Origin: Corynebacterium sp.
GTDB taxonomy: Bacteria > Actinomycetota > Actinomycetes > Mycobacteriales > Mycobacteriaceae
DNA length: 64,000 nt
Direction of reading: 5' to 3'
Assembly: GCF_052107835.1 (NCBI RefSeq)
Contig: NZ_JBQEDF010000012.1
Coordinates: 161-64,160, forward strand
Below are positions 4,669-27,192 of this stretch, one piece after another; the first letter of the stretch is position 1; every line of letters starts with the position of its first letter. The position numbers were made by a program, and so were the translations under genes. The notes below the pieces were generated by a model. The model saw only the letters and a program-made list of their open reading frames with translations, made no database searches and had not been told where the DNA came from.

Positions 4669-6318
4669 TCACCTGGCCGACTGCTGGTCCCTCTTGCTGA
4701 TCTTGCCCACCCCGGTCAACGGGAACTCGTCGACGATGTCGATGGCATCCGGCACCGCGAAGCTCGCCAGGCCGTGGTCACGGGCGTACTTGCGCAGGGT
4801 GGTGTGGGTGAGACCGGCATCGGTGGATGACACGGAGCCCCGGGGGATGACGAACGCCCGGATCCTCTCGCCGAGCAGCTCGTCCTCCATCCCCACCACG
4901 GACACGTCGTGGACACCGGGGTGGGTCAGCAGGACATTCTCGACCGCCTCGGGGGCGATCTTCTCACCGCCGCGGTTGATCTGGTCCTTGGCCCGCCCCA
5001 CCACGGTCAGCGTCCCGCCGGTGAACACCACGATGTCGCCGGTGCGGTAGAAACCGTCGGAGGTGAAGGAACGTTCGTTCACCTCCGGCGCGCGGTGGTA
5101 CCGGCGGATCGTGTAGGGCCCGCGGGTCAGCAGGTGTCCCGGCTGCCCCTCCGGGACGTCACGGTCCGCGTCGTCGACGACGCGGATCTCGTCGTGGGGG
5201 CTCATCGGACGGCCCTGGGTGGAGACGATCTCCTCGATCGACGCGTCCAACGGCGTGTAGTTCACCAGCCCCTCGGCCATGCCGAAGACCTGCTGCAGGT
5301 TCCACCCCAGTTCGGGACGCACCCGTCTGGCCGCCGCCTCGGACAGTTTCGCCCCGCCCACCCACACGGTGCGCACTGCGGAGACGTCGTGGGCGTCGCG
5401 CTCCGGGGAGTTCAGCAGGCTGATCAGTGCCGGCGGTACCAGGGCGAGATGGGTCACCCGGTGACGTTCAATCAGGGGCAGGACCGTGGTGGGCATGGGG
5501 TCCGGGGCGAACACCATCGTGGCTCCGACCTGGACCGCGCCCAGTATCCCCGGCGAGCTCATCGTGAAGTTGTGGGACGCGGGCAGGGCGACGAGCAGGA
5601 CGTCGCCGTGTCCCAGGTCGCAGACGTCGATGGAGGCACGGACGGAGTAGAGGTAGTCGTCGTGGGTCTTCGGGATCTGCTTCGGTACCCCTGTCGTCCC
5701 ACCGGAGAGCTGGAGGAAGGCCAGTTCGTCCGCGCGAACCTCCGCGGGTTCGGGGGCGTCACCGGGCTCGGCGGAGCTCCAGGGATCAGCCGCCTGCTCG
5801 TCAACGAGGATCATCGAGACCGTCGGACCGTCCTCCAGCGGTGCGGTGAGATCCCTGTGGACCCGCTTCAGGTGCCGGTTCGGTCGTGCAGTGCTGAGGT
5901 AGAACGTGGCGGGGGCATGGGTCGCGAAGTGCCGGATCTCCTGGGAACCGTGCGCGGGCAGGGAGAACACCGGGATCGCACCCAGGCGCCAGACGGCGAA
6001 GACCGCCTCCAGGTAGGCCACGGCGTTGGGCATCTGGACGATCACGCCGTCCCCGCGTGAGATTCCCGCCCGCGACAGGACGGTGGATGCCCGGGTCACG
6101 CCCTCGTCCAGTTCCCCCCAGGTCACGGTCCGGGACGCGTCGGTGGCGGCGGTGTCGTCCGTCCACGTGTCCGCGGCCCGCCGGAACAGCTGCCAGTGGG
6201 TGTCGCCGTTCCATACACCGAGGTCGCGGTAGTGTTCCGCGGCCTCGGCGGGTACGCCGGTGGCGAGCACTCCGGTGCGGGGCTCCGGGCCGGTGGAGAT
6301 GTCGGGGAGGGTGGTCAT
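4669..6318 (-). CDS. Aryl-acid (2,3-dihydroxybenzoate/salicylate)-AMP ligase, DhbE/EntE/MbtA family
   Basis: FLQLSGGTTGVPKQIPKTHDDYLYS (A3), HNFTMSSPG, YRTGDIV, GGEKIAPEAVE and GKISKRD (A10) are typical of stand-alone aryl-adenylating enzymes. The start MTTLPD at 6318 forms an ATGA overlap with the NRPS stop; the ORF-track start 6456 is an over-extension. Confidence 0.88.
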   Translation of the reverse strand: MTTLPDISTGPEPRTGVLATGVPAEAAEHYRDLGVWNGDTHWQLFRRAADTWTDDTAATDASRTVTWGELDEGVTRASTVLSRAGISRGDGVIVQMPNAVAYLEAVFAVWRLGAIPVFSLPAHGSQEIRHFATHAPATFYLSTARPNRHLKRVHRDLTAPLEDGPTVSMILVDEQAADPWSSAEPGDAPEPAEVRADELAFLQLSGGTTGVPKQIPKTHDDYLYSVRASIDVCDLGHGDVLLVALPASHNFTMSSPGILGAVQVGATMVFAPDPMPTTVLPLIERHRVTHLALVPPALISLLNSPERDAHDVSAVRTVWVGGAKLSEAAARRVRPELGWNLQQVFGMAEGLVNYTPLDASIEEIVSTQGRPMSPHDEIRVVDDADRDVPEGQPGHLLTRGPYTIRRYHRAPEVNERSFTSDGFYRTGDIVVFTGGTLTVVGRAKDQINRGGEKIAPEAVENVLLTHPGVHDVSVVGMEDELLGERIRAFVIPRGSVSSTDAGLTHTTLRKYARDHGLASFAVPDAIDIVDEFPLTGVGKISKRDQQSAR

Positions 6319-9300
6319 GTCAGTGGCTCCAGATCTGCGGTGAGGGCGTCGGAGATGAACGGTGTGATCCGGTCCCATCCGTCCGGGGTGACCAGGCCGG
6401 AGTGGGTCGTGTCGAGGGTGAGGTGGGCCGGGGTGCGGCCGAGGGCCCCCGTCCAAGCGGGAACGGGGTCCCAGACGGCGGGCGCGGCAGTGCCGGATGC
6501 GGCGCGGGAGGCGGTGACGACCTGGACGTCGCCGGTGAATCCGGTGAGGTCCACCGGGGACGCGGACTGCAGCAGGGAGTCGCAGAATTCCAGGTTGGCC
6601 CTGAGGGTCTCCGTCCCCCCGTCGCCGTCTGACGTGCCGGGCATCCCGGCGATGTCGGCGAGCTGCGCGGGGGTGGCTCCGTCCGTGGACGCGGGGCGCG
6701 CCGGACCCGTCCCCGCCGGGTAGGCGTCGATGATGCCGAGGTAGGCGACCTGCTCCCCGCGCCGGAGGAGCTCGGCGGTCATGGCCTGGGCGACCGTGCC
6801 ACCGAAGGAGTACCCGAGGAGACGGTAAGGGCCGTGGCCACGCGCCTGCTGGATCACGTCGACGTAGGACGCCGCCAGCCCGGCCAGGGACGAGACGCCG
6901 GGGAGCGGGTCCGGCAGCTGGAGGCCGGTGACCGGGATGCCCGGACCGCCCTTCGCCGTGTCCAACCGGTCGGCGAGACCGCGGAAGGGCAGTGCCAGAC
7001 CACCGCCGGGGTGGATGCAGAACAACGGTGCCCCGGCCCCCGGGGCCAGCGGCAGGACCTGCCGGGTGCCACCGCCGCCGAGCCGGCCGGCGAGGGCGGC
7101 CGGGGATCCGGTCTCGACGATGTCCTGGATGGTGACCTTCTCCAGCCCCGCCCGCCGCAGCCGGCCGAGCAGGCGCATGGCCAGCAGGGAGTGCCCGCCG
7201 ATGTCGAAGAAGTTGTCGTGGGCACCGACCGTGTCGGTCCCCAGGAGGGTGGCCATGGCTTCGGCGATGGTGGCGGTGGCGTCCGCGTCACCGGCCGGTT
7301 CGGCACCGGGGACGGTGTCCCCGTCGGGCTCCGGGACAGCGTCCCCGCGGGTCGGCCCGTCGGTCGGCTCCCACGGTCCGGGCAGGCTGTTGAGCAGGGC
7401 GCCGGTGCTGATCCGCGTGTCGGCCACAACGGTCGACAGGACCTGCGCCAGGGTGCGGTGGGCGAGGTCCACGAACCGGGCGTCCACCAGGTCGGGGCGG
7501 TGGGCGAGGACGATCCGCAGCGTCGGACCCGGCGGAGCGACCACGGAGAGCGGGAAGTCGGTCATCCCGTCCGCGTGCACCCCGGCCACGGTGATGGTGT
7601 CAGGGCTGGTATCCGTCGCCGTCCCGTCCGGCTCCCCGGGGACACCCGGGAAGTTGTCGTGGACCACCAGGGAGTCGAAGAGCTGCCCGTGCCCGGCGAG
7701 CCGTTCGATGCGCACCAGCGGGGTGGACTCGTGGGCGGTCATCCCCGCCTGGGTCCGGCCCACGGTGCGCAGCAGTCCGGCGAGGGAGTCGGCGGGGTCG
7801 AGGGTCACCCGGGCAGGGAGGGTGTTGATGAACAGGCCCACGGTGTTGCTGATCCCCGGCAGTTCGGTGGGCCTGCCGGACACCGTGGTGCCGAACACCA
7901 CGTCCCGCGAGCCGGTGAGGGATGCCAGGGTGAGCGCCCACGCCGCCTGGAGCAGAGTGTTCGGGGTGACACCGGCGGCGGACGCCCGGTCCAGCAGGGC
8001 GGCCGGGGTGAGTGTGCCCGAGGTGACCTCGTGGAGAGTCTCGCCGGTGACGGTGCCCGCGCGGTCCCGGTCCGCGTCGGTCGGTGGGGCGATCCCCCGG
8101 ATGAGGGTGCCGCCGGTCAGACCGTTGAGCCGGGCGGACCAGGCGTCCTCGTCGGCGCGGGTGTCCCGGGACCCCAGCCAGTCGAGGTAGTCGGCGTAGG
8201 GTGCGGCCTCCGGAAGTGCCCGGCCGTGGTAGACGGCGAGCAGGTCGTGCACCATGACGGGGGTCGACCAGCCGTCCGTGACCAGGTGGTGGTTCCCCAG
8301 GGTCAGGCGTGCCGCCGACCCGGGCAGGAGGACGAGTTCCGCGGCGACGAGGGGCCCGTACCCCAGGTCGATGCGACGGCCGGCCATGGTGCGCAGCAGG
8401 TCGTCGGCGGCGGAGGTGGCCGCGTCGCCGGGGAGACCGCGCAGGTCCACGGTCCGCCACGGCAGGTCGACGTCCCGCGGGACGAGCTGGACGGGGGAGG
8501 GGAGTGTGGAGGTGTCGAAGCGGGCGCGCAGCAGGGGGTGGCGTTCGAGCACCTGCAGGAGGGCGGAGCGCAGGCGTCCGGGGTCGACGGTGCCGCGCAG
8601 GTCGATCCCGGCGGCCAGGACGTAGCCGTCGCCGCCACTCTCCGCGTGGAACAGCAGTCCCTCCTGCAGCGGCGACACCGGGAGGACGTCGGACAGGGGG
8701 CCGTGGACGCTCTCCCATGCGTTGATGGTTGCCTGGTCAACATCCGGGACGTGGGTGAGGTCGCTGGGGCTGGCGCCGCCGGGTGATGTCCGGGCCAGGA
8801 CGGCCAGTGCGGTGAAGGCGGGGGTGAAGGACTCGGCCGGGAAGTCCGGGGAGGTGCTGTGGAACCCGCCCGCGTCGGCATCGACGAGCAGGAGCGGGGT
8901 CGGCAGCGTCCCACCCCGCAGCGTCATGGCCGTCCGCCCGGTGGCCACGGTCACCGCGGGTGGTGTGACGGTGTCTCCGGCCGGGGAGCGCAGGTGTTCC
9001 TTGGCGTGGAGCAGGGACTGACGCGCCCGCTGTGCCGGGGTTCCCTGGCCAGCCGGGAGGGCGGGGATGATCCGCGATCCACCGGGGGCGTCCGACAGTG
9101 CCACCGGGCCGTCGACGTTCAGCAGTGCCGCGGCAGCGGCGATCTCCTCCGGTGTCACGGTGAAGAGTGTGGGGAGGTCGCCGAAGATGGCGTCCGCGTC
9201 CGGGATTCCCGCAACGTCCGGGGGTGTGACGGGCTCCCCGTGGAGGGCACGGGCCAGCCCGTCCAGGATGTCCCCGGCGGCCACCGGGTCGAGGACCGCG

Positions 9301-12300
9301 GTGTCGACCGCCACCCGGACCCGGGTCGTCCCTTCGGCGGCGTTGTCCGGGATGTCATCCCGCACGATCCCCAGTGACCAGGGCACCCCGGCCGCCGGGT
9401 CGATCAGACTGAGGAGGTCGTCGTCGCCGGTGACCGTGCCGGCGGCCGCGCGCCCGGCGGGCACCGGGGGAACGCGCGGGACGATGAGCCGGGGGCCGTC
9501 CGGTGCGCCGGCGTCGAGCACGGCGCGCAGGACGCCGTGTGCCGCCATCATGGTCGCCGCCGCCTCCGCGAGAACATCACGCAGCTGGTCCGGTGCACCG
9601 TCCACGGAGATCTCGCCGACGAGGGCGGGGCGGGGTGCGTCACGGAAGGACGACGGCAGCGCAACCGTTCCGGAGTGGATGGTGTCAGTGGGTGTGCGGT
9701 CCTCCGCGGTTCCGTCGTCGCGGGTACCGCCCCCGTCCGGCGCCACTGCACCGGCGGAGGATGCGACATGGCGCAGCTCGGTCCCGGTGAGCAGGTCACC
9801 GGCCTGGACAGCCACCCCGTCGCGGCGCAGGCGTCCGGCGACGGTCAGGGCACCGATGCTGTCGCCGCCCAGGGCGATGAAGTCACGGTCCAGGGCCACG
9901 GCCTCCGGACCGGTGCCCAGCACCCCGGCCACGGCGTCCACCAGGGCCCGCTCGGTGTCGGTCAGGTCTGCTGCGGACGGGTCGTCGGCGCTGTCCCGCC
10001 CGTCCTGCTGCGGCCCGTCGTCCTCCGACGCCTGCAGGGCGCGCCGGTCTATCTTGCCGCCGATGGTTAAGGGGAGCCGGTCGTGCACCCGGACGCGTGT
10101 GGGGACCAGGTGGCCGGGAACCCGGTCGGCGAGCGCGGCGCGGACATCGAACGACGGTTCCGTGGCCGCAGCCTCCGGTGACAGGGTCACGTGGGCGATC
10201 AGCTTGAGTGCCCCCGGCGTCCCGAAGGTGCCCACCGCGGCACCGGTGACCTGCGGAAGTCCCTGCAGGGCGGCCTCGACTTCCCCGGGCTCCACGCGGT
10301 GGCCGCGGATCTCCAGCTGGTCGTCCGCACGCCCCAGGAAGTGGTGGGCGCCGCCGCGCGGCCCGGGAACCCAGCGCACCAGGTCCCCGGTCCGGTAGCG
10401 GCGGCTGCCCGCGGACGTGCTGAACACGTCCGCGGTCTGCTCCTCCAGCCCGCGGTAGCCGAGCGCGATCTGCGGCCCGGACAGGTGGAGCTCCCCGGTC
10501 TCGTTGTCCGGAGCGACCTCCCCGTCGACATCGAGGATCTCGGCGGTCATGCCGGGGACGGGGTGTCCGATGATGACCGGGCCGGGGACGACGGCCGCGG
10601 CCAGCGCATCCACCGTCGCCTCCGTCGGGCCGTAGACGTTCCATGCCGCCAGTCCGGGACTGGCGGCGAGCCGGTCCCACAATGACTGCGGAATCGCCTC
10701 ACCACCGAGGATCACGGTGGACACGCCCGCCCCGTCCAGCACGCCGGACTCGATGAGCGCCCCGGCCAGCGAGGGGGTGGCGTCCAGCACGTCGATGCCG
10801 TCGGCGAGCAGTGCGGTGCGCATCAGCCCGGGATCACCGACCGTCCGCGCCGGGTAGAGGTGGACGGTGGCGCCGGTGAAGAGCCAGGACAGCTGGTCGA
10901 GCGCGGCGTCGAAGGAGAAGGACGCGGTGTGGGCCACGTGCAGCTCCCCCTCACACCGTGCTCTGGCCCAGGCGTCCGGGTACAGGGTGGTGCGGTGGCC
11001 GGCGAGCAGCGCCTCGACACTGGACCGGCTGATCTCCACCCCCTTCGGCTGCCCGGTCGTCCCGGAGGTGTACAGCAGGTAGGCCAGGTCGTCCTGAGCT
11101 CCGGTCACGTCGTCGGGGGATACACCGGTCGCGGTGATCCCGTCGGCGTCGAGGACCGCCGTGGCACCGGAGTCGGTGAGGATCCGGTCGCGCCGGGCCT
11201 TCGGGTGCCCGCGGTCGAGGATCACGAAGGCCCGGTGCGCACGCCACACCGCGAGGACGGCGACGGCAAGATCCGTGCCCTTCGGCAGGTCGAGGGCGAT
11301 CACGTCGCCGTCCCCGGAGGACGCGGTGATCCGTCGGGCCGTCCGGGTGATCCGTTGCTGCAGGTCGGTGGCGGGGAGGAACCCGTCGTCGTCGACGAGC
11401 CCGCCGGCGGCGCCGTGGCCGCCGATACCGTCGATGAGCCCGTCGAGACCGGGGACGGTGTCCGGCAGCGGGGCGCCGGCGCGCTCGGCGGACGCGGCGG
11501 CGACGAATGCTGGATCGCGCAGCCGGATGTCCTTCAGCGGGCCGTCGGCGAAGAGCAGCGTCCGGATGTCCCGGAGCCGCTGGGTGGCGGTGTTGGTGTC
11601 CACGCTGTCCGGATCGGTCTCGAAGGCGAGGTCGATGCCTCCGTCCACCGTCGGGGTGACGACGAGGACCAGGTCCTCCGGCGGACCGCCGGCGATGTTG
11701 CGCAGTACCCCGGGTGTGCCGTGGAAGTCGAGGGAGAAGTCGAAGGTCTTCAGGTTCAGGCCGATGCCGTGCAGCACGGCCGGGCCGGCGAGTTCCCCCG
11801 CCAGGTCGCGGACCAGGTCACTGCCGGGGTAGCGCTGGTGGGTGCGGATGTCGTCCAGTGCAGCGTGGGCGGTCCGGGCGACGTCGGGGACCGAGGCGTC
11901 GGCCCGGACGTCGAAACGCAGGGGCTGCATGTTGACCAGCATGGCCGGGGTGCGGCGCAGCGGGCCGGACGTGCGGGCCATCATCGGCATGGCGATCAGG
12001 GCCTCGTCGACGGCGTGGCCCATCTTGCGCAGCCAGGCCCCGTAGGCGCCGAGGACCAGGTCCGACCAGACCAGGCCGTGGGCCTCGGCCCGGTCACGCA
12101 ACCCCGACATCTCCACGGGGTCCATCCGCAGGGTGGTGGTGATGCTTGCGGTCCCCGCACCGTGGACCAGGTCCTCCCGGCCGGTGGTGTCCGGTGCGGG
12201 GGTCATCCGGTCCCTGAAGAACTCCCGGTCGGAGCGGTAGGCGTCGCCGGAGCGGTAGGTGAGGTCGGCGTCCACGATCTCGGCGACGGGGGCGAACCTC

Positions 12301-12839
12301 GGGGGACGCGCTGTCCGCCCTCCGGCGAGTTCCGTGAAGTGCGCGGCTGTACGGCGGGTCAGCAGGGCGGCGCTGTACCCGTCGACGATGAGGTGGTGGT
12401 ACAGCTGTATGCACCACACGGCGCTGCCCAGGTCGAGGATCAGGAAGCGGTGCAGTGGCCCGCCGGTCATGGTGCGCCACCGTTCACCGCACTCCGCCTT
12501 CTCCGCGTCGATGATGGCGGACGCCAGGACGTACGGGTCCGGCACCGTCCCCGGGTCGGAGATGTCGCGGATCTCCGGTCGTGCGGCGGGGGAGGGGTCC
12601 ACGTACTGGGCGGGTTCGCCGTCACCGGTGAAGCGCAGCCGCAGCGTCTCGGACTCGTCCACCGTGCGGCGTACCGCCTCCGCCAGCAGTGCCGTGTCCA
12701 CCGGCGCGAGTTCGAGAACCTCCCCGACCACGTAGTACGGCGAGGTGGGGTCCAGTTTCTGCGCGTTCCAGATCCCCCGTTGGGCGGCGGTCAGCGGCAG
12801 ACGCTGCGGTGGTACCTCGGAGGAGGGGGAGTCGGTCAC
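6315..12839 (-). CDS. Non-ribosomal peptide synthetase, domain order C-A-T-X(degenerate C/E-like)-C-T-TE
   Basis: Residue numbers refer to the 2198-aa ORF opening at TTG 12911. Motifs: HHLIVDGYS (172), LAYLLYTSGTTGQPKG (609), GGKIDRRAL (951), FIALGGDSIG (Ser1018), HHLVTDGWS (1541), FFDIGGHSLL (Ser1908), GYSFGG (Ser2035). There is no A domain between the second C and the second T. GTG 12839, preceded by the SD AAGGA 8 nt upstream, is the more plausible start and leaves a 96-bp divergent promoter gap. Confidence 0.92.
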   Translation of the reverse strand: MTDSPSSEVPPQRLPLTAAQRGIWNAQKLDPTSPYYVVGEVLELAPVDTALLAEAVRRTVDESETLRLRFTGDGEPAQYVDPSPAARPEIRDISDPGTVPDPYVLASAIIDAEKAECGERWRTMTGGPLHRFLILDLGSAVWCIQLYHHLIVDGYSAALLTRRTAAHFTELAGGRTARPPRFAPVAEIVDADLTYRSGDAYRSDREFFRDRMTPAPDTTGREDLVHGAGTASITTTLRMDPVEMSGLRDRAEAHGLVWSDLVLGAYGAWLRKMGHAVDEALIAMPMMARTSGPLRRTPAMLVNMQPLRFDVRADASVPDVARTAHAALDDIRTHQRYPGSDLVRDLAGELAGPAVLHGIGLNLKTFDFSLDFHGTPGVLRNIAGGPPEDLVLVVTPTVDGGIDLAFETDPDSVDTNTATQRLRDIRTLLFADGPLKDIRLRDPAFVAAASAERAGAPLPDTVPGLDGLIDGIGGHGAAGGLVDDDGFLPATDLQQRITRTARRITASSGDGDVIALDLPKGTDLAVAVLAVWRAHRAFVILDRGHPKARRDRILTDSGATAVLDADGITATGVSPDDVTGAQDDLAYLLYTSGTTGQPKGVEISRSSVEALLAGHRTTLYPDAWARARCEGELHVAHTASFSFDAALDQLSWLFTGATVHLYPARTVGDPGLMRTALLADGIDVLDATPSLAGALIESGVLDGAGVSTVILGGEAIPQSLWDRLAASPGLAAWNVYGPTEATVDALAAAVVPGPVIIGHPVPGMTAEILDVDGEVAPDNETGELHLSGPQIALGYRGLEEQTADVFSTSAGSRRYRTGDLVRWVPGPRGGAHHFLGRADDQLEIRGHRVEPGEVEAALQGLPQVTGAAVGTFGTPGALKLIAHVTLSPEAAATEPSFDVRAALADRVPGHLVPTRVRVHDRLPLTIGGKIDRRALQASEDDGPQQDGRDSADDPSAADLTDTERALVDAVAGVLGTGPEAVALDRDFIALGGDSIGALTVAGRLRRDGVAVQAGDLLTGTELRHVASSAGAVAPDGGGTRDDGTAEDRTPTDTIHSGTVALPSSFRDAPRPALVGEISVDGAPDQLRDVLAEAAATMMAAHGVLRAVLDAGAPDGPRLIVPRVPPVPAGRAAAGTVTGDDDLLSLIDPAAGVPWSLGIVRDDIPDNAAEGTTRVRVAVDTAVLDPVAAGDILDGLARALHGEPVTPPDVAGIPDADAIFGDLPTLFTVTPEEIAAAAALLNVDGPVALSDAPGGSRIIPALPAGQGTPAQRARQSLLHAKEHLRSPAGDTVTPPAVTVATGRTAMTLRGGTLPTPLLLVDADAGGFHSTSPDFPAESFTPAFTALAVLARTSPGGASPSDLTHVPDVDQATINAWESVHGPLSDVLPVSPLQEGLLFHAESGGDGYVLAAGIDLRGTVDPGRLRSALLQVLERHPLLRARFDTSTLPSPVQLVPRDVDLPWRTVDLRGLPGDAATSAADDLLRTMAGRRIDLGYGPLVAAELVLLPGSAARLTLGNHHLVTDGWSTPVMVHDLLAVYHGRALPEAAPYADYLDWLGSRDTRADEDAWSARLNGLTGGTLIRGIAPPTDADRDRAGTVTGETLHEVTSGTLTPAALLDRASAAGVTPNTLLQAAWALTLASLTGSRDVVFGTTVSGRPTELPGISNTVGLFINTLPARVTLDPADSLAGLLRTVGRTQAGMTAHESTPLVRIERLAGHGQLFDSLVVHDNFPGVPGEPDGTATDTSPDTITVAGVHADGMTDFPLSVVAPPGPTLRIVLAHRPDLVDARFVDLAHRTLAQVLSTVVADTRISTGALLNSLPGPWEPTDGPTRGDAVPEPDGDTVPGAEPAGDADATATIAEAMATLLGTDTVGAHDNFFDIGGHSLLAMRLLGRLRRAGLEKVTIQDIVETGSPAALAGRLGGGGTRQVLPLAPGAGAPLFCIHPGGGLALPFRGLADRLDTAKGGPGIPVTGLQLPDPLPGVSSLAGLAASYVDVIQQARGHGPYRLLGYSFGGTVAQAMTAELLRRGEQVAYLGIIDAYPAGTGPARPASTDGATPAQLADIAGMPGTSDGDGGTETLRANLEFCDSLLQSASPVDLTGFTGDVQVVTASRAASGTAAPAVWDPVPAWTGALGRTPAHLTLDTTHSGLVTPDGWDRITPFISDALTADLEPLT

Positions 12840-12935
12840 GGGGGGAGTCCTTTCGGAAGGTGTGGAGAGGCTTACTTCATTCCCGGAGGATGGTAGAGTC
12901 CGCACGGTCAATCACGAACGAACACGGAGCAGGGA

Positions 12936-13199: not shown

Positions 13200-14876
13200 G
13201 CCCGCCACCAGGGCCTTGCGGTCGAGCTTTCCGTTCGGGCTGAACGGGAGGGCGTCGATGACGGTGAACCGGGACGGCACCATGTACTCCGGGACAGTCT
13301 CGGCGAGCCCCGCCGCCAGCTGCGTGGCGTCGGGGGCGGTCGTGTCCTCCGCGACGATGAAGGCCACCAGCTCCGCTGTCCCGTCCGGCCCGTCGACGGC
13401 GACCGTGGCCGCCTGGCGGACCCCGGGGAGTTCGCGCAGCCGGGCCTCGACCTCGCCGAGCTCCACCCGGTTGCCGCGGATCTTCACCTGGTCGCCGATG
13501 CGTCCCAGGAACCGCAGGAGGCGTTCGCCGTTGACCTCGGTCCAGGCGACGATGTCGCCGGTGCGGTACATGCGGCCGCCGTCTGTCCCGGGTTCCGGGG
13601 AGGGGACGAAGACCTCCGCGGTGAGGTCGGGGCGGGCGAAGTAGCCGGTGCCGACCTGTGGTCCGGAGATGCACAGCTCACCGGGGGTGTCCCAGGAGTC
13701 CCCGGCGGGGTCGACCTCGGTCCCGTCCTCCCGGAACACGTACACGCCGACATTGTCCTCCGGCAGCCCCAGGAGGCTGGCGTGGTCGTCGAAGTCGGGG
13801 GAGGTCACGAGGTCGTCGGTGTACTCGACCCAGGTGACGTCCATCGCGGTCTCGGTGGGGCCGTAGAGGCCGTGGACGCGGCAGCCGATCCCCTCACGTG
13901 CACGCTTCACCACGTCACCCGGCACGGCTTCCCCGCCGAGAATCAGGTGGCGGAGAGGCGACAGTGCGGTCAGTGGCGTCCCGAGGTCGTCCAGGACGTC
14001 GAACAGGACGCGGAGCAGGGACGGCACCATGGACAGGACGGTGACGTTGTGCCGGCCGACCATGTCGACCAGGGCATCGACGTCACCTGGCCACCAGTCC
14101 GGCGGAGGCACGACGACGGTGCCGCCGGTGGCGAGCGGGCCCAGCAGTTCGGCCACGCCGACATCGAAACTGACCGGCGCCTTCTGCAGCATGCGGATGC
14201 CCGCGGAACCGGTGGCCGGTGCATCCCCGGCGAGGACACGTCCCATCCACTGGAAGTGCGCGGTGACACCGATGTGCGTGTTCAACGCACCCTTGGGCGT
14301 CCCGGTCGTGCCGGAGGTGTAGATCAGGTAGCAGGGGTCGTCCGGTGTGACGGGACGGGACTGCTCGGCCGCGGTGAAGGGACGGTGCTCCGCGGCAAGG
14401 AACCCACGGCCCAGCGGGGAGTCGTCGGTGACGGTGCCGGTGGGAAGACCGCTCTCCGTGAATCCCCGTGGCAGCGACGCCCCGCCGAGTGCGAACGCGG
14501 CCGCCGGCGCGCAGTCGTCGAGGATGAAGGCGACCCGTTCGGCGGGGTAGGACGCGTCGACCGGGACGTACACCGCACCGGCCCGGATGATGCCGGACGC
14601 GACGACCGGCAGCCAGCCGCACCGGTTGGCCAGGACAACCACCCGGTCACCGGTGCCCACACCAATCGCCCGGAGGTGACGGGCCACCGCGGAGGAACGC
14701 CGGTCGAGGTCCGCGAAGGTCACGGGTCCGCCGTCGCCGGCCACGGCGGGACTGTCGGGGTGTTCCGCGGCGGACCGCAGGAGGAGTTCGTCGAGGGTTG
14801 CCGGCTCGACCGGGGTGGCGGGGCCGAAGCGCAGGTCACCGGCGCGTCCGGCGAACGCCGGGAGTGTGCTTGTCAC
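13194..14876 (-). CDS. Stand-alone NRPS adenylation domain protein (no carrier domain)
   Basis: 560 aa with LIYTSGTTGTPKGA, YGPTETAMDVT, YRTGDIV, KIRGNRVELGEVE and NGKLDRKAL; it ends 10 aa after A10. The GTG start at 14876 gives a GTGA overlap with the upstream monooxygenase stop. The 912-aa ORF-track entry is an out-of-context extension. Confidence 0.88.
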   Translation of the reverse strand: MTSTLPAFAGRAGDLRFGPATPVEPATLDELLLRSAAEHPDSPAVAGDGGPVTFADLDRRSSAVARHLRAIGVGTGDRVVVLANRCGWLPVVASGIIRAGAVYVPVDASYPAERVAFILDDCAPAAAFALGGASLPRGFTESGLPTGTVTDDSPLGRGFLAAEHRPFTAAEQSRPVTPDDPCYLIYTSGTTGTPKGALNTHIGVTAHFQWMGRVLAGDAPATGSAGIRMLQKAPVSFDVGVAELLGPLATGGTVVVPPPDWWPGDVDALVDMVGRHNVTVLSMVPSLLRVLFDVLDDLGTPLTALSPLRHLILGGEAVPGDVVKRAREGIGCRVHGLYGPTETAMDVTWVEYTDDLVTSPDFDDHASLLGLPEDNVGVYVFREDGTEVDPAGDSWDTPGELCISGPQVGTGYFARPDLTAEVFVPSPEPGTDGGRMYRTGDIVAWTEVNGERLLRFLGRIGDQVKIRGNRVELGEVEARLRELPGVRQAATVAVDGPDGTAELVAFIVAEDTTAPDATQLAAGLAETVPEYMVPSRFTVIDALPFSPNGKLDRKALVAGL

Positions 14877-16222
14877 TGGAGGATCCTTTCGTCGGTGGTG
14901 GACGGCTGGCGCAGCGATTCCGGGGCGGGGGCGCACCCGGCCCCGAGCCCGGCGAGGACGCGGTCGGAGAGTTCCCCGAGACAGCTGAGGTTCGCCAGGC
15001 CAGGTCCCTGGCGGAGGCCGGAGAGGGTGGGGAGGAACAACGTCGGGTCCATGCCCTCGAGGGCGAGGTCGGCGCCGATCCCGGCCTCCACGGCCTGGCT
15101 GGTCACCTGACCCGAACAGGCGCTGATCAGCCGGGCGACGGTGCGGTCGTCCATCATGCGGGTGAACCACAGTGGGGAGTTGCCGCGGGCGTCGACGACC
15201 ATGTCGAAGACCTCGGTCCGTCCGTCGTCGGTGTGCACGGCGGCGAGGCCGTTGTGGTCGGTGACGCCGGTGACCCGGCCGCGCAGGTGGTTGACCCGGT
15301 CCTCGCCCTTCAGCCGTGCCTGCACCTGGGCGGAGAAGACACCGCGGTCGCAACAGGCGATGACCTCGCGGCGGTCGGCGTCGTCCAGCGTCGTCCACAG
15401 GGTGGGGTCGGTGTAGAGCCCGTTCTCGAAAGCGCCCTCGGCGCGGGTGAAGATGGTGGCCAGCGGGGAGATCACCGCCAGGTCGACGACGTCGTGGTTG
15501 ACGACCTCCTCCACGATGCTCGCGGCCGTCTCGCCGCCGCCGATCACCGCGACGCGGGAGGCGGTCGGCAGACGTCCCGAGGAGACCGCCTGCCAGAACC
15601 CCGCCACCGAGAACACCGTGGGCAGCGGCGCGATCCGGCGGTCGGAGCGTCCCGGGCCGGTCAGCATCAGCGCGTCGGCCTCGATGCGGGTGGTCGAGCC
15701 GTCGAGACGGCCGACGGTCAGGGACCACCCGTCGGCACCGTCGTCTCCGGCCACCCGCGCGGCGCCCGGGTTGCGCAGACCGATGCGGTTGACCTGGCCG
15801 GGGACCAGATGCATCCCGGTACGGGCCGCGGCCCAACGCAGGTACTCGGCCCACAGGTAGTGGCGGGGACTGGGGTGGTCGTTGTCGACCCACCAGGCGT
15901 AGCGGCCGGTGTCGACCAGGAAGCCCGTCCACCCGGACGCGAGCAGTTCACGGTCGACCGCGCTGTTGGCGTCGGTGCCGGGCGGCCCGGCAATGCGGGT
16001 GCGGTAGGGGAAGCCGACGTCTTTGGTGGGGGACGTGCCGAGTCGGTGCCGGCCGTCGGTCCATCCGCCACCGGACCGCCAGTTCCCGCCGATGCCCTGG
16101 TAGTCGACGACGGTGATGCTGGGGGCGGGCAGGCCGAGGGAACGCAGGGCGGCCGCCTTGGCGTTCACGGCGACCGCCTTGGGCCCGGCGCCGAGGATGA
16201 GGAGAGAGGGGGGAATCTGCAC
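14873..16222 (-). CDS. FAD-dependent amine N-hydroxylase, MbtG / lysine N6-monooxygenase-like
   Basis: 449 aa. The N-terminal LLILGAGPKAVAVNAKAAAL dinucleotide fold and GGNWRSGGGWTDGRHRLGTSPTKDVGFPYRT resemble MbtG-type lysine N-oxygenases as I recall them. Operon context with the A domain. Confidence 0.72.
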   Translation of the reverse strand: MQIPPSLLILGAGPKAVAVNAKAAALRSLGLPAPSITVVDYQGIGGNWRSGGGWTDGRHRLGTSPTKDVGFPYRTRIAGPPGTDANSAVDRELLASGWTGFLVDTGRYAWWVDNDHPSPRHYLWAEYLRWAAARTGMHLVPGQVNRIGLRNPGAARVAGDDGADGWSLTVGRLDGSTTRIEADALMLTGPGRSDRRIAPLPTVFSVAGFWQAVSSGRLPTASRVAVIGGGETAASIVEEVVNHDVVDLAVISPLATIFTRAEGAFENGLYTDPTLWTTLDDADRREVIACCDRGVFSAQVQARLKGEDRVNHLRGRVTGVTDHNGLAAVHTDDGRTEVFDMVVDARGNSPLWFTRMMDDRTVARLISACSGQVTSQAVEAGIGADLALEGMDPTLFLPTLSGLRQGPGLANLSCLGELSDRVLAGLGAGCAPAPESLRQPSTTDERILQ

Positions 16223-16269
16223 GGTGAGGGGTGCTCCTGGTCAGTTGTCCTGTGGTCCACTGGGCAGGC

Positions 16270-16302
16270 TACCCTGATTCGTGACCCCTGATCAAAGGGT
16301 AG
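16270..16302. promoter_or_regulatory. Dyad-symmetry element in the divergent promoter region between the N-hydroxylase and acyltransferase genes
   Basis: CTACCCTGAT-N12-ATCAAAGGGTAG. The overlapping 19-mers at 16259-16277 and 16294-16312 match the DtxR consensus TTAGGTTAGCCTAACCTAA at only 12/19 and 11/19. Confidence 0.3.
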
Positions 16303-16354
16303 GGTGTCTTTAGAATCAAATGTGCAGTACGACCAGTGGGAGAGGACCAAGACT

Positions 16355-17041
16355 GTGACCGAGAACATTGCCGCCGCGCCGATCGACCTGAGCGTCCTGC
16401 ACCGGCTGCGGACCGATGTGGGGCCGGACGGACGACTGCCGGATGCCCCGCCGGTTCCCGCGGTCTACCGGACCCCCGGTGAGGGCATCAGCCTCCGGGT
16501 CGCCGACCCGTCGGAGGACTCGCAGGACCCCGGGAAGGTCGCCGACTGGATGGGCCGTCCGCACCTGGTGGAGACCTGGGAGCAGGACTGGAGCGCGCAG
16601 ACGTGGGCCGCCGACTGGCGGGCGAAACTGTCCACGACCTACTCCCTGCCACTGATCCTGGGCTACGGGGAGGACGAGGTCGGCTACATGGAGATCTACC
16701 GGCCGCACCGCGACGAGATCGGGCTGGTCTACGGCTCCGAGCCGCATGACCTGGGCTTCCATGTGGCGGTCGGGGAGGAGTCGTTGACCGGTCGGGGGAT
16801 CTTCAGCCCATTCCTCGGTGACATGGCCCGGAACCTGCTGGAGGCAGACCCGGACTGCCATCTCGTGCTCGTGGAGCCGTCTTCGACGAACCACCGCGTG
16901 CACCGCGTCCTGCGCCGGGGTGGTGGCGTGGACGCCGGCGAGCGCCAGCAGAGGGCGGACCGGAGGGTCAGGCTGTTCTACTGGGCGGACGGGACGGTCG
17001 ACCCGGCCGACCGCCTGCTCAGTGCTCCTGTTGACGACTGA
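16355..17041 (+). CDS. Siderophore N-acyltransferase, GNAT fold, IucB/MbtK-like
   Basis: DWMGRPHLVETWEQDW...LILGYGEDEVGYMEIYRPHRDEIG...HDLGFHVAVGE is the hydroxylysine/hydroxyornithine acyltransferase signature. GTG 16355 follows the SD GGGAGAGGA. The 17 codons from the ORF-track start 16304 have AT-rich third positions, atypical for this genome. Confidence 0.8.
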   Translation: MTENIAAAPIDLSVLHRLRTDVGPDGRLPDAPPVPAVYRTPGEGISLRVADPSEDSQDPGKVADWMGRPHLVETWEQDWSAQTWAADWRAKLSTTYSLPLILGYGEDEVGYMEIYRPHRDEIGLVYGSEPHDLGFHVAVGEESLTGRGIFSPFLGDMARNLLEADPDCHLVLVEPSSTNHRVHRVLRRGGGVDAGERQQRADRRVRLFYWADGTVDPADRLLSAPVDD

Positions 17042-17079
17042 CCGCGACGAAGTGTAGCGCCCGTGCTACACCGTGCGTC

Positions 17080-17370
17080 ATGAGCGCCCCCGATCCTCAT
17101 GCCCCTGGCATTGAGTCCCTCTCGCAGCGTGAACTGCGCAATGATTCCGGGCGTGTCCTCCGCTCGGTGAATCAGGGGGAGTCCTTCGTCCTGACCAACA
17201 GTGGCGTGCCGGTCGGGAAGATCGTCCCGCTTGATACCCCTGTATCTGGGCTGCGGATCGCACGTCCGGCGAAGCGCCGCGGTGGATGGTCGGCACTGGG
17301 AATCCGCCGGAAGTCCGTCCCGGCGGGTCTGCCGGGTATCCTCGACGATCTCCGGGGCGACCGGCTGTGA
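17080..17370 (+). CDS. Type II antitoxin, Phd/YefM (VapB-like) family
   Basis: 96 aa. ...LSQRELRNDSGRVLRSVNQGESFVLTNSGVPVGKIVPL... is the typical antitoxin N-terminal fold. GTGA overlap with the downstream PIN gene. Confidence 0.7.
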   Translation: MSAPDPHAPGIESLSQRELRNDSGRVLRSVNQGESFVLTNSGVPVGKIVPLDTPVSGLRIARPAKRRGGWSALGIRRKSVPAGLPGILDDLRGDRL

Positions 17371-17636
17371 CAGTCGCGCAGACAGTCTACGTCGACACCT
17401 CCGCTGCCGGAGTGCTACTGATTGACCGGCCCGAGAGTGGAGCGCTGCTGGACTGGCTGGACCGTTCCGTGTTCCGGAGCGCGGGACTACTGCCGATGAG
17501 GTCTCTGCGCACCCTCGATGCCCTGCACCTTGAGGCCGCTCTACGCCTGGACGCCGCGGCCCTTCTCACCTACGACCACAGGCTGGGTGAGGCCGCCCGT
17601 GCCGTGGGGCTGGACGTGATCGCGCCGGGAACCTGA
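17367..17636 (+). CDS. PIN-domain (VapC-like) toxin, abnormally short (89 aa), probably internally deleted
   Basis: VYVDTSAAGVLL (first acidic PIN residue), then LRTLDALHLEAA and LTYDHRLGEAARAVGLDV (C-terminal PIN motifs). About 35-40 aa between them, including the conserved Glu segment, appear to be missing. Confidence 0.6.
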   Translation: MTVAQTVYVDTSAAGVLLIDRPESGALLDWLDRSVFRSAGLLPMRSLRTLDALHLEAALRLDAAALLTYDHRLGEAARAVGLDVIAPGT

Positions 17637-17660
17637 ACCGGTGCCGGCGTGTGGGGGCGG

Positions 17661-18965
17661 TCAGTCGCGCACTGGGGTGATCAGTCGTGCGGTCACGCCG
17701 CTGCCGACCCGGCCGGATCGCCCTCCCGTGGCCTTCGGGTCGGTGACTCCGGGCAGGAGGACCAGCGTGGAGCCGCCGGGGTGCCCGTCCTGCAGCCGCT
17801 TCGCCACGGCGAAACCGTTGACCTCGGGAAGGTGGGTCAGGTCCACTGTGCGGTCCGCGATGATGTGGTCCACCGTCCCGAACAGGTTGCGTGCCTGTGC
17901 GGGGACGGGACGCTGCGGGGTCTGTGCGGTGCCGTCAACGATGCCGGCGTCGGTCAGCCGTGCCAGTGCAGCCAGGCTGATCAGTGCCTGCTCCAGCCAG
18001 CGCCACAGCAGCACCCCGTCCGCCCCGCCCCGCTCGTCGACGACCGACACCCGGGCGAGTGCCTGTGTCCCCAGGATCACGTGGGGCACCCCGTCCACCG
18101 GACGCACCGGGCCGGTCACCGAGATCTTCGCCTCACTGACCTCCACGGTGGCGTCCGGTTCGACCGTGTCCCGTTCGGCGTCCACGGAGGCGTCCAGGAG
18201 CGAGGCGGTGGCGTCCACGATGTCCCTGACCACCGGGGCACCGGTCAGGAGCTCGGATTCCGTGGCGCCGGTATGCGGCACGGAGGCGGAGAACTGCTGG
18301 TCGAGGCGTCCCACCGTCCGTCGTTCCGGGGCGGTGCGGGCACGCAGCGCCACCGTGTCAATGGGGTGTCCCGCCGCGGCGCGCGCGATGACCACCGCGG
18401 CGGCGAGGATCTCCTGGTGCCCGACACCGAGCTGTGGGGGGAGCACATCCAGCAGTGCCTCCGCGTCGCTGACATCGAAGGTCTTGTAGGTCGCCGGACC
18501 GCCACCGTCGATGGCGGCGGGCGGGACGTCGGCGGCGAGCCACGGCCAGGAACCGACGGGCCCCACGCTGCCTCCCGACAGCAGTGTCCTGACGTCCCCG
18601 ATGACCGTGGCCCACGATGCCGCGTCCACCACGCCACGGTGCACACAGACCAGGATGCGGGTGGGTGAGAGGTAGCTGACGCGCCACACCAGGCCCGCCT
18701 CCGGATCCATCGAGGCCGCCAGGACGCCGGGACCGGACCTCTCTTCCGCGATCACGTCGTCCGCGGTGACCAACGGTTCCTCCGGGACGCGCACCGTGGT
18801 CCCGGCGACCACCGCCCGCAGAGCCCCGTGGGATGCCATCATCGCCGAGACCGTCCGCCGCAGCGTGGCGTCCGGCACCGGCTCGTCCGCGTCGATTGCC
18901 CCCCAAAGGGCGGCGGACGGCGGCACGGGGGACGCGGTGAACTCGGTGGCGGTGGAAGGGGACAT
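17661..18965 (-). CDS. Free-standing condensation/epimerization-like protein with a degenerate active site (VHRGVVDAASW instead of HHxxxDG)
   Basis: 434 aa. Its N-terminal part (LRRTVSAMMASHGALRAVV...) is paralogous to the X region of the NRPS (LAEAAATMMAAHGVLRAVL...). The DxxSW motif is retained, but the second (catalytic) His is Arg. Confidence 0.7.
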   Translation of the reverse strand: MSPSTATEFTASPVPPSAALWGAIDADEPVPDATLRRTVSAMMASHGALRAVVAGTTVRVPEEPLVTADDVIAEERSGPGVLAASMDPEAGLVWRVSYLSPTRILVCVHRGVVDAASWATVIGDVRTLLSGGSVGPVGSWPWLAADVPPAAIDGGGPATYKTFDVSDAEALLDVLPPQLGVGHQEILAAAVVIARAAAGHPIDTVALRARTAPERRTVGRLDQQFSASVPHTGATESELLTGAPVVRDIVDATASLLDASVDAERDTVEPDATVEVSEAKISVTGPVRPVDGVPHVILGTQALARVSVVDERGGADGVLLWRWLEQALISLAALARLTDAGIVDGTAQTPQRPVPAQARNLFGTVDHIIADRTVDLTHLPEVNGFAVAKRLQDGHPGGSTLVLLPGVTDPKATGGRSGRVGSGVTARLITPVRD

Positions 18966-19000
18966 GGCACCGAACGTTACATGGACATATCGTTGTAAGT

Positions 19001-19921
19001 ATGGCTACGAACAGCTGGACCGACAAGGACATCCCCGACCAGTCCGGCAGGACCGCCGTCGTCACCGGGGCCAACAGCGGCCTCGGTTTCGAGACGTCCC
19101 GGGCACTGGCGTCCAGGGGTGCGCACGTTGTCCTGGCCGTGCGCTCCACCGACAACGGTGAGGACGCGGCCGACCGGATCAGGCATTCGGTGCCGGACGC
19201 CGAACTGACCGTCCAGCAGCTGGACCTGGCCTCGCTCGACTCGGTGCGCGAGGCGGCAGATGTGCTGAAGCAGACCTTTCCCGCGATTGACCTGCTGGTC
19301 AACAATGCCGGGGTGATGTACCCGCCGAAGCTGGAGACCGCCGAGGGGTTCGAGCTGCAGTTCGGTGTGAACCACCTCGGCACGTTCGCCTTCACCGGTC
19401 AACTGCTCGACAACGTGCTGACGGTCCCGGACTCGAGGATCGTCACCGTGTCCAGTGTGGCGCACCAGATGCGCGCCGAGATCCACTTTGATGACCTGCA
19501 GTGGGAGCGTTCCTTCGACACGGTGGCCGCCTACGGCCAGTCCAAGCTGTCGAACCTCCTGTTCGCCTACGAACTCCAGCACCGTCTGAAGGCCGCGGGC
19601 GCGGACGCCATCTCGGTGGCCGCGCACCCCGGGGTCTCCGACACGGCATTGTTCCGCTACCTTCCCGGACCGGTGCAGAAGGTGTGGCCGGCGGTGCGTC
19701 CAGTTGTCTCCCAGCCCGCGGCGAAGGGGGCGCTGCCGTCACTGCGTGCGGCCACCGACCCGGACGTCTTCGGCGGGCAGTACTTCGGTCCCCGGGGTCC
19801 CGGAGGCTTCCGGGGTGCCCCGGTGGTGGTGTCCTCCACCGAACAGACCCATGACCGGGACCTGCAGCGGCGCCTGTGGGACGTCTCCGGGGAACTGACC
19901 GGGGTAACCTTCCCGGTCTGA
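19001..19921 (+). CDS. Short-chain dehydrogenase/reductase (SDR), retinol-dehydrogenase-like subgroup
   Basis: 306 aa with TAVVTGANSGLGFETSRALASRGAHVVLAVR (TGxxxGxG), NNAG, and Y..SK in AAYGQSKLSN. Confidence 0.85.
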   Translation: MATNSWTDKDIPDQSGRTAVVTGANSGLGFETSRALASRGAHVVLAVRSTDNGEDAADRIRHSVPDAELTVQQLDLASLDSVREAADVLKQTFPAIDLLVNNAGVMYPPKLETAEGFELQFGVNHLGTFAFTGQLLDNVLTVPDSRIVTVSSVAHQMRAEIHFDDLQWERSFDTVAAYGQSKLSNLLFAYELQHRLKAAGADAISVAAHPGVSDTALFRYLPGPVQKVWPAVRPVVSQPAAKGALPSLRAATDPDVFGGQYFGPRGPGGFRGAPVVVSSTEQTHDRDLQRRLWDVSGELTGVTFPV

Positions 19922-19939
19922 GCCGGCCGTCGCCGGGAA

Positions 19940-22050: not shown

Positions 22051-22057
22051 ACGGTGA

Positions 22058-22624: not shown

Positions 22625-22680
22625 GATCGGTCTCCTGGTGGGGTGCGGGTGCGGTGGGCTACGTCTTCAGTGTCAACAAG

Positions 22681-27127: not shown

Positions 27128-27192
27128 GGTTCGGGATCGTAGGAAGCCGGACGGGGACAATGACACCGTTTGCCGCGGTGCGCAGCGAACCC

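Follow-up and report, generated by a model that had tools for sequence, protein, structure and literature searches.

The 64,000-nt stretch of Corynebacterium DNA analyzed here (the window) carries a nonribosomal peptide synthetase (NRPS) gene with a degenerate domain embedded between the first carrier domain (T1) and the second condensation domain (C2) of its product (NRPS residues ~1085-1400; 8712..9659, minus strand). The same gene cluster encodes a free-standing protein of 434 aa (17661..18965, minus strand), which is a paralogue of this domain. By sequence, both copies descend from epimerization (E) domains and have lost the E-type active site, and they are referred to below as pseudo-epimerization (pseudo-E) domains. 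We give an even chance to the reading that the embedded copy is a structural relic, whereas the free copy still functions as a partner in trans, most likely without catalysis.

Paralogy of the embedded and free copies

BLASTP alignment of the 306-aa embedded region with the free protein gave 42/139 identities (30%, E 6e-7) and covered free residues 16-136 only. For profile comparison, two alignments were used: the free family (A1), consisting of the free protein and 17 relatives, and six embedded copies (A2), consisting of the window's copy and those of five sister NRPSs (embedded region 37-42% identical). The 17 relatives, which are 55-70% identical, all come from Corynebacterium, are annotated as "hypothetical proteins", and have no Pfam domain. 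The two alignments matched each other in hhalign with 98.8% probability (E 1e-16) over 267 columns, embedded residues ~1111-1397 pairing with free residues 37-357. The embedded and free copies also formed one clade in phylogenetic trees, with support of 100 in a 68-row tree and 100/99 in a 39-row tree.

The free-family profile was searched against 1.84 billion representative proteins, of which 244 matched at E≤1e-3, almost all being synthetases of several thousand residues. Outside the free family, the top single-domain matches were embedded copies of sister NRPSs (79.4 and 58.9 bits), and no canonical E domain scored above 50.9 bits. The free family itself made up a single 50%-identity cluster and two fragments among these representatives. 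The embedded NRPS region and the free protein are thus paralogues, as the first-pass annotation had proposed from the letters alone; the N-terminal two-thirds of the free protein that it had matched to the embedded region is about right, the 267 aligned columns (free residues 37-357) being closer to three quarters.

Pfam searches gave no family for either copy, with one noise match only (SMP, E 0.57), and neither copy had a match in NCBIfam or in single-sequence phmmer searches of the Protein Data Bank (PDB; E≤10). The sole PDB match of the embedded profile was AvaR1 (E 0.051), which we take to be a TetR-type regulator; this match was treated as spurious.

Descent from epimerization domains

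Against PDB sequences, the free-family profile gave 10 distinct matches at E≤10, all of them NRPS chains. Six were E domains or E-containing constructs of the tyrocidine and gramicidin S synthetases, among them TycA PCP-E, TycB3 E, and GrsA PCP-E, with an E-value of 0.013 for the TycA E domain (2xhg). The other four were larger NRPS chains, namely bacitracin synthase 3, which had the best E-value (3.2e-4), and three PvdL chains, with a best stretch of no more than 29 residues for PvdL. In these alignments, 'cvhrGvvdaesw' of the profile lay on HHLVVDGISW, and 'valrargr...rtvGrldrqy' lay on (I/T)LEGHGRE...RTVGWFT(S/K)YP.

A set of 148 listed proteins outside the free family was rescored, with the E motifs xHGR and TVGWF recognized by regular expressions. 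Of 245 domain matches in these proteins, 203 fell on domains with both E motifs, 23 on domains with the HH motif only, and 19 on domains with neither. This choice of E domains over the more numerous condensation (C) domains is the main evidence for an E-type origin. Reference alignments were built from the same proteins (60 of 98 E domains; 60 of 153 non-E C domains). In hhalign, the free family matched the E reference with 99.0% probability (E 3e-18) and the C reference with 78.5% (E 1.7e-5); the corresponding values for the embedded family were 97.2% (E 3.7e-11) and 78.2% (E 1.8e-5). Scores from hidden Markov models (HMMs) were 33-48 bits on E and -3 to 14 bits on C for the free family, whereas the embedded copies (0.4-18 bits on E, 3-16 on C) are too diverged to be separated in this way. 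In trees, both the free and the embedded copies nested inside E domains. The two copies therefore descend from E domains and not from ordinary C domains.

Residues 2-345 of the AlphaFold2 (AF2) model of the free protein (pLDDT 69, pTM 0.63) form a C-superfamily fold, which consists of two chloramphenicol-acetyltransferase-like lobes arranged as a V. Foldseek matched the model to C, Cy, E, and CT domains (E ~1e-10, probability 1.00), and VIA-align placed 278-296 residues on C-superfamily domains at Z 15.5-20.4, including the PchE Cy domain (20.4), a PCP-C didomain (18.7), the TycB3 E domain (18.4), and the teicoplanin X-domain (15.6). The C, Cy, E, and X subtypes could not be told apart by structure (4tx2, Z 15.6; E domains, 15.5-18.4).

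Active-site motifs and C-terminal extension

In the embedded copy, VDTAVLD takes the place of HHxxxDG (NRPS residues 1202-1208, nt 9288-9308), the EGHGRE region reads GPVALSDA (nt 9087-9110) with the motif unrecognizable, and the domain ends in a GGASPSD linker (nt 8760-8780). In the free protein, VHRGVVD (residues 108-114, nt 18624-18644) was aligned by the profile such that H109-R110...D114 fall on HHxxxDG of solved E domains. Both of these motifs lie where the first-pass annotation had placed them. Further along the free protein, LRAR (nt 18336-18347) brings R208 to the position of the catalytic Glu, and RTVGRLD is found at nt 18300-18320. In the profile alignment to TycA, R110 lies on H743, R208 on E882, and R210 on the His of EGHGRE. 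H743 and E882 were assigned as the acid/base pair of TycA by crosslinking and mutagenesis, and product formation was lost by 99% in H743A and by 99.5% in E882A (PMC8905534). R110, G111, D114, R208, R210, and the segment R216-T217-x-G219-R220-L221-D222 are invariant in 18/18 members of the free family. Neither copy retains the E-type catalytic pair, and the active site of both is predicted to be dead.

The free protein further contains a C-terminal extension (residues 346-434; 17664..17930, minus strand) that is absent from the embedded copy. A near-invariant Gly/Arg-rich end, LPGVTDPKATGGRSGRVGSGVT.RLI (residues 404-429; nt 17679-17756, minus strand), is kept across 18 members that are only 55-70% identical overall, and the extension is a candidate interface. 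Comparison of the extension with the E and C alignments by hhalign gave nothing. An origin from C2 was considered for residues ~365-407, which weakly resemble the C2 stretch before the HH motif ('RTVDL..LP..LVLLPG'), and was rejected (hhalign 7.9%, E 0.0044). An origin from AMP-binding proteins was likewise rejected, the ESM Atlas value of 0.77 to AMP-binding fragments being at chance level, and a resemblance to receiver domains noticed by eye had no Pfam support.

Module context of the embedded copy

The NRPS gene (6315..12911, minus strand) encodes 2198 aa from a TTG start codon; the database version begins 24 codons later and has 2174 aa. Its domain order is C1-A-T1-pseudoE-C2-T2-TE. Pfam identified C1, A, T1, C2 (1408-1832), T2 (1881-1944), and TE, and left residues ~1055-1405 without an assigned family. 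All domains are encoded on the minus strand. The C1 domain (residues ~36-470; 11502..12806) has an intact HHLIVDG motif and is followed by the adenylation domain A1 (residues 515-953; 10053..11369) and T1 (approximately residues 985-1050; 9762..9959), and the C1-A-T1 stretch is similar to EntF/MxcG. C2 (residues 1408-1832; 7416..8690) has an intact HHLVTDG motif (nt 8271-8291) and is of the DCL type by position. Module 2 (C2-T2-TE) ends with T2 (GGHSL) and TE (residues 1881-2101; 6609..7271). It has no A domain of its own and a stand-alone A enzyme is encoded just upstream, an arrangement kept in all three cluster classes described below.

T1 bears the E-partner core GGDSI (nt 9855-9869), and in 14/14 NRPSs of this family that were read, T1 was GGDSI and T2 was GGHSL. 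Among library synthetases, DSI was found in 151 of 154 carrier domains preceding an E domain, and carrier domains preceding a C domain mostly had HSL (37/75). C2 scored 350.7 bits with an HMM of C domains directly after E and 209.4 bits with a non-post-E HMM, with the same outcome in 7/7 NRPSs, and it fell inside the post-E (DCL) clade with support of 99. The embedded copy thus occupies the setting of a classic T(GGDSI)-E-DCL module. This placement holds for the embedded copy only, the free copy being a separate gene. Intact-E clusters have similar motifs in the A1 pocket region (FDAALDQL ... VDAL/IDAL), and residue 1 is therefore probably the same chiral amino acid.

These data refine the domain assignment of the first-pass annotation. 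Its description of both copies as condensation/epimerization-like without HHxxxDG stands, with the correction that they are specifically epimerization-type and that EGHGRE is also lost in both. A decayed E domain, which it had named as an alternative, is favored for both copies by the E-nearer profiles and the nesting in E domains in trees, and for the embedded copy by the GGDSI core of T1, the post-E type of C2, and an intact E domain at the same place in related Corynebacterium clusters. The subtype phylogeny it had suggested puts both copies inside the E clade; the structure superposition, also suggested there, gave a C-superfamily fold for the free copy and did not separate the subtypes.

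Distribution and evolutionary series in Corynebacterium

The free-family profile was searched against 301 Corynebacterium genomes, and 18 matched at E≤1e-10. The free gene was present in 11 of the 18, with an intact reading frame in all (E≤1e-204), and was found only together with this NRPS family (11/11). In nine of the 11 (eight genomes and the window) it lies 8-10 kb from the embedded copy, and it adjoins the acyltransferase gene. Four genomes had the embedded copy only, with a strong match to the free profile (E 1e-23 to 2e-29). When these four genomes, 93-99% complete, were searched again at E≤1e-3, no further match appeared. The remaining three genomes had the embedded copy only, with a weak match (E ~2e-11) that corresponds to an intact E domain.

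These classes differ at the positions of HHxxxDG, EGHGRE, and RTVGWFT. In the three weak embedded-only rows, all three motifs are intact, reading VHHxxVDALSW, VEGHGR(E/D), and VGWFT. The four strong embedded-only copies and the database protein P0030 (five rows) read VHR(G/S)VLDP, (L/M)RxR (LYRH in P0030), and (V/I)xG(S/D/N)L, hereafter the HR/RxR type. The 11 free proteins read V(H/Y)RGxxD, LR(A/S)R, and RT(V/L)GRLD. Ten embedded copies of the window's class, comprising five loci that also hold the free gene and the proteins P0022-P0026, read VDxxxxx(P/A) at the first position; the second motif is lost or down to ..LxR, and the third is mostly lost. The catalytic second His is missing in 10/10 of these rows. 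In the five free-gene loci whose embedded copy was read (the window, L003, L007, L009, and L010), HR and the Arg at the Glu position were lost in 5/5. The gene content (acyltransferase, FAD protein, A enzyme, NRPS, and aryl ligase) is the same in HR-only loci without the free gene.

The 39-row tree had the topology (intact-E orthologues, (free, (HR-embedded, decayed-embedded))), with support of at least 98 for the branches joining the classes; the HR-embedded rows grouped at only 86/65. An exclusive clade of free and decayed-embedded copies was considered and rejected, at a cost of 14.4 log-likelihood units (p-AU 0.028, for a group named post hoc). A tree of C1-A showed a trichotomy of the HR-only group and two free-gene groups.

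Some loci were irregular. Between L004 (Corynebacterium sp. USCH3) and L006 (C. glyciniphilum DE0385), synonymous divergence (dS) was ~0.23 for the NRPS, with 86-94% amino-acid identity per domain, and 0.84 for the free pseudo-E genes, with 77% identity; this discordance suggests recombination or transfer of the NRPS or the free gene. In L005 (Corynebacterium sp. CNJ-954, ~15664-21304), the NRPS seems to be split over frames, as the tblastn alignment stops at residue 862 and the frame over C2 is open for only 640 codons, which may reflect a frameshift, a pseudogene, or an assembly error.

Selection on the two copies

Ratios of nonsynonymous to synonymous divergence (dN/dS) were calculated pairwise by the Nei-Gojobori method. 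The free gene gave 0.19-0.41, compared with 0.16-0.33 for C1 and A and 0.18-0.48 for C2. The mean column identity of the free family was 61%, with long invariant blocks that include the C-terminal extension. The free gene is therefore under purifying selection and is constrained like the catalytic domains. Decayed embedded copies gave 0.30-0.67, the nearest pair having 0.30 at a dS of 0.24, and their mean amino-acid identity was 0.49 as against 0.69-0.78 in the other domains. HR-type embedded copies gave 0.39-0.44, with 0.13-0.29 in their flanks (C1, A, and C2). Both kinds of embedded copy are relaxed about twofold relative to their neighbors and are still below neutrality.

Possible functions of the embedded and free copies

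In the reading to which we give even chances, an E domain would first have been inactivated to the HR/RxR state, with the second His changed to Arg and EGH to RxR, and this pseudo-E domain would then have been duplicated into a separate gene. The free copy would have kept HR/RxR and gained its conserved C-terminal extension of ~90 aa under purifying selection. One lineage would have lost the free gene and retained HR/RxR in the in-line copy; in the other, the free gene would have been retained and the in-line copy would have shed its remaining motif residues. The embedded copy might now be mainly a folded spacer that holds T1 and the donor side of C2 in register, and the free copy might act in trans on the same assembly line, by binding T1 or the T1-X-C2 junction or by docking a partner. 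A non-catalytic trans role is favored because the His-to-Arg change is that of the glycopeptide X-domain and because the free gene is selected and linked to the NRPS. The idea of an X-domain-like recruiter would seem to fit the free copy better than the window's embedded copy, since the latter has lost the HRxxxD residues and the former keeps an X-like HRxxxD under purifying selection. That the recruited partner is the hydroxylase or the acyltransferase is speculation.

Several observations weigh against this reading. The combination of free gene present and embedded copy decayed represents essentially one split, a single event without replicated correlation. The rate of embedded HR/RxR copies in genomes that lack the free gene (dN/dS 0.39-0.44) matches that of the decayed copies (0.30-0.67), so that rates cannot show the HR state to be the working state, and this contrast is made by the motif residues alone. 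In two of nine loci, both from metagenome-assembled genomes (L001 and L002), the NRPS is on another contig, and the free gene lies beside genes for a luciferase-like monooxygenase and a flavin reductase. C2 is still strongly DCL-like and may need a D-configured donor, which a purely non-catalytic reading leaves unexplained. With respect to E-type descent, the E and C reference sets were taken from matches of the free-family profile and labelled by our own motif rules, and two rows labelled 'LCL' landed among E domains in the 68-row tree. The AF2 model of the embedded copy, made from six sequences, was too poor to search (pLDDT 47.6, pTM 0.36), and a C-superfamily fold of this copy would follow from its homology to the free family and E domains in hhalign only.

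The DCL type of C2 in 7/7 NRPSs and the GGDSI core of T1 in 14/14, which look as if an E-type partner and a D-donor were in use, could be accounted for if the HR/RxR pseudo-E were still an enzyme. The Arg residues in place of His and Glu, or other conserved residues, would then epimerize the T1-bound intermediate or catalyze a different reaction on it, working in cis as an embedded domain and in trans as a separate protein, and the product would feed the D-specific C2. The invariance of R110, R208, and R210 in 18/18 free proteins, the retention of HR in 5/5 and of RxR in 4/5 embedded-only copies, the purifying selection on the free gene, and an A1 pocket similar to that of intact-E clusters, with residue 1 probably the same chiral amino acid, agree with such an activity. 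We nonetheless consider it unlikely. Both residues essential in TycA (H743 and E882) are replaced, we know of no E or C domain that works with Arg at the His743 and Glu882 places, and the DCL and GGDSI signatures may last through inheritance alone. Moreover, the glycopeptide X-domain, which shares the His-to-Arg change, recruits partners without catalysis according to PMC11546977. At the other extreme, both copies would be functionless, the embedded one being an undeletable linker and the free gene a leftover of a partial NRPS duplication. The embedded copies are indeed the fastest-evolving part of the synthetase (identity 0.49, dN/dS up to 0.67), the free protein has no family annotation, and inactive E domains are retained elsewhere, e.g., in LgrA (PMC10510592). 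Such a loss of function is improbable given the dN/dS of the free gene (0.19-0.41), which is within the range of catalytic domains (0.13-0.48), its intact frame in 11/11 genomes, and its 61% mean column identity with invariant blocks; even the embedded copies, at 0.30 with a dS of 0.24 in the nearest pair, are below neutrality.

Recruitment of the free protein to another pathway, represented by the luciferase-like monooxygenase, flavin-reductase, and acyl-CoA-dehydrogenase-like genes and without a siderophore role, has little probability in our view. The free gene occurs only in genomes with this NRPS family (11/11, 301 sampled), lies at most 10 kb from the NRPS and beside the acyltransferase gene in 9/11, and the monooxygenase group adjoins the cluster also in L014, a genome without the free gene. 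What speaks for such a recruitment is the location of the free gene among monooxygenase-type genes in L001 and L002 with the NRPS on another contig, its position in the window at the border of the NRPS genes and the monooxygenase group, and the separate histories suggested by L004 and L006 (dS 0.84 for the free gene, ~0.23 for the NRPS). The first-pass annotation had instead considered the embedded copy as a possible X-like platform that recruits an N-hydroxylase or N-acyltransferase to the T1-bound substrate, with the free protein as a second platform. Non-catalytic C-type recruiters such as the X-domain do exist, some purifying selection is left on the embedded region, and synteny of the hydroxylase and acyltransferase genes is seen in every class. 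The same tailoring genes, however, accompany intact-E clusters, so that a special platform seems unneeded, and the window's embedded copy has no X-like HR motif; we regard this proposal as very improbable.

A wider conjecture than the relic-and-trans-partner reading, and one to which we assign only a minor chance, is that the HR/RxR pseudo-E is itself a functional module able to work in cis or in trans. Exactly one copy with the arginine triad, which replaces His743 and Glu882 of TycA and the His of EGHGRE, would be retained per genome examined, either inside the synthetase or as a free protein, and the in-line copy would decay only if the free copy exists. If this were true, the E lineage would have in the free protein its first stand-alone member of an X-domain-like kind, which would serve as a trans adaptor or chaperone for the T-E-C junction or as an epimerase with arginine chemistry that supplies the D-specific C2.

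Gene cluster and neighborhood

The nearest named relatives of the window proteins are from C. glyciniphilum, C. kalidii, and 'Ca. C. avicola', and the host is a high-GC Corynebacterium. The siderophore-type cluster is located downstream of the ribosomal-protein genes rplD and rplB, and the host synthetase is predicted to be an aryl-capped hydroxamate siderophore NRPS. In addition to the NRPS and free pseudo-E genes, the cluster contains genes for an aryl-acid adenylating enzyme similar to (2,3-dihydroxybenzoyl)adenylate synthase (DHB-AMP-ligase-like; 4669..6456, minus strand; 559 bits, under the curated cutoff of 723 bits) and for the stand-alone adenylation enzyme, which presumably loads T2 (13194..~14900, minus strand, start approximate). 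A FAD/NAD(P)-binding protein with a weak Pfam match (14873..16222, minus strand), called MbtG-like in the first-pass annotation, and an N-acyltransferase of the Acetyltransf_8 family (IucB/MbtK-type; 16304..17041, plus strand) are also encoded. Synteny of the genes for this FAD protein (the putative hydroxylase) and for the acyltransferase extends to every cluster class. The neighborhood scanned showed no aryl carrier protein that could serve the DHB-ligase-like enzyme and the EntF/MxcG-like C1, and neither a P450 family nor any other obvious X-domain client was found among the 17 neighboring proteins scanned. A DtxR/IdeR-type iron box, with a 19-nt consensus, had no match at ≤3 mismatches in the window; the best match had six mismatches and was no better than in shuffles.

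Between the acyltransferase gene and the free pseudo-E gene, two small overlapping open reading frames (ORFs) are present (17080-17636, plus strand). One encodes 96 aa with a match to the Phd/YefM antitoxin (E 2.4e-5, under the Pfam cutoff), and the other encodes 116 aa that match a PIN domain at the C-terminal end only (E 2.4e-5); they are possibly a toxin-antitoxin pair inserted in the cluster, perhaps truncated. An SDR-family oxidoreductase gene (19001-19921, plus strand) is divergent from the free gene, with ~35 bp between the start codons. It had no tblastn counterpart in nine related loci and is thus specific to this genome's arrangement. The block bordering the cluster (20956-31165) encodes luciferase-like monooxygenases, a flavin reductase, an acyl-CoA-dehydrogenase-like protein, a SmoA-like flavoprotein, an MFS transporter, and an NMT1/SsuA-like binding protein, and has a counterpart in locus L001 (7207-18477); in the two metagenome-assembled genomes, the free pseudo-E gene is located within this block and not next to the NRPS. 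A 472-aa ORF without a Pfam family (20021-21439, plus strand) overlaps a luciferase-like monooxygenase gene on the opposite strand and appeared 'conserved' in related loci by tblastn; its 3' part at least, though not necessarily its 5' ~300 codons, is probably a shadow of the monooxygenase gene.

DNA near-identical to the window was found in food-fermentation and dairy metagenomes. One food metatranscriptome run (X15) contained three small contigs whose sequence coincides fully with parts of the window in the acyltransferase gene (16433-17046) and in the SDR gene (19384-19559). The organism was present in this sample, its presence in an RNA library being no proof of transcription. None of the contigs lay on the free gene or the NRPS, which is uninformative, since lack of cover proves nothing.

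Comparison with known systems

Canonical E domains (TycA, GrsA, TycB3; 2xhg, 5isw, 6ta8) are the best sequence-profile relatives of both copies and share the two-lobed C-superfamily fold of the free copy (Z 15.5-18.4). The embedded copy sits at the canonical place, with a GGDSI carrier before it and a DCL-type C domain after it, and a remnant of RTVGWFT is seen as RTVGRLD in the free copy. In contrast to canonical E domains, the His/Glu pair (TycA H743/E882) is replaced by Arg/Arg in the free copy and by Thr and no equivalent in the embedded copy, both copies are shorter (~310-345 vs. ~430 aa), and the free copy stands outside the synthetase with an extra C-terminal extension.

Retention of a dead E domain in cis, as proposed for the embedded copy, has a parallel in LgrA (F-A-PCP-C-A-PCP-E), in which an E domain without activity is kept at the end of a module that loads glycine (PMC10510592). 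Glycine rules out epimerization in that module, whereas here the A1 pocket resembles that of intact-E clusters, which makes a chiral residue probable. The passage on LgrA mentions no free-standing paralogue.

According to PMC11546977, the glycopeptide X-domain has a C/E-type fold with the motif HRxxxDD, is non-catalytic, and recruits partner enzymes. The free copy, with (H/Y)RGxxD(A/S/T), shares the His-to-Arg change and not the second Asp, and the window's embedded copy has neither. The free-copy model aligned with the X-domain structure 4tx2 at Z 15.6 (rmsd 4.4 Å, 283 residues). The PDB sequence matches of the free copy (E≤10), however, were E domains and other NRPS chains and included no X-domain, so that the His-to-Arg change probably reflects parallel evolution and not shared descent. 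The arrangement also differs: the X-domain lies in the last module before TE and recruits P450s, whereas in the two-module line of the window the embedded copy is placed between T1 and C2, and the free copy is a protein of its own.

The stand-alone C-superfamily proteins SgcC5 (4znm), CmnI (9uay), TlmII (4hvm), and AzeD (8s6l) have the same fold (Z 15.9-18.4). These are enzymes according to their titles; the free copy, in contrast, has neither E-type catalytic residue and is nearest to the embedded pseudo-domain of its own cluster. Interface (I) domains are non-catalytic C-family members of siderophore synthetases that are considered to dock a tailoring enzyme; they form part of the synthetase and do not stand alone, and their partners are Asp beta-hydroxylases. 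No Asp beta-hydroxylase was found among the neighbors scanned in the window.

Inactive in-line E domains and non-catalytic C-family scaffolds are thus already known. In the open-access full-text literature searched, we found no description of this free-standing family or of an HR-type E domain, of an E-lineage pseudo-domain kept as a conserved free gene beside a decayed in-line twin, or of a three-stage series within one genus. Dead assembly-line domains are usually dismissed as scars, and here a single genus displays three stages: an intact E domain, a pseudo-E domain with specific remodelling, and a pseudo-E domain that has moved out of the synthetase into a conserved gene of its own, with decay of the twin left in line. 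This series offers a natural experiment on what an inactive C/E-type domain adds to module-to-module transfer and on whether it can be supplied in trans, which is relevant to NRPS engineering, since T-E-C junctions are difficult to move between synthetases. It also bears on the prediction of stereochemistry, as tools that call any E-like domain 'active', or that miss it as Pfam does, would mispredict the product. The parallel His-to-Arg change in the glycopeptide X-domain and in the pseudo-E domains of Corynebacterium suggests a common route from a C-family enzyme to a scaffold.

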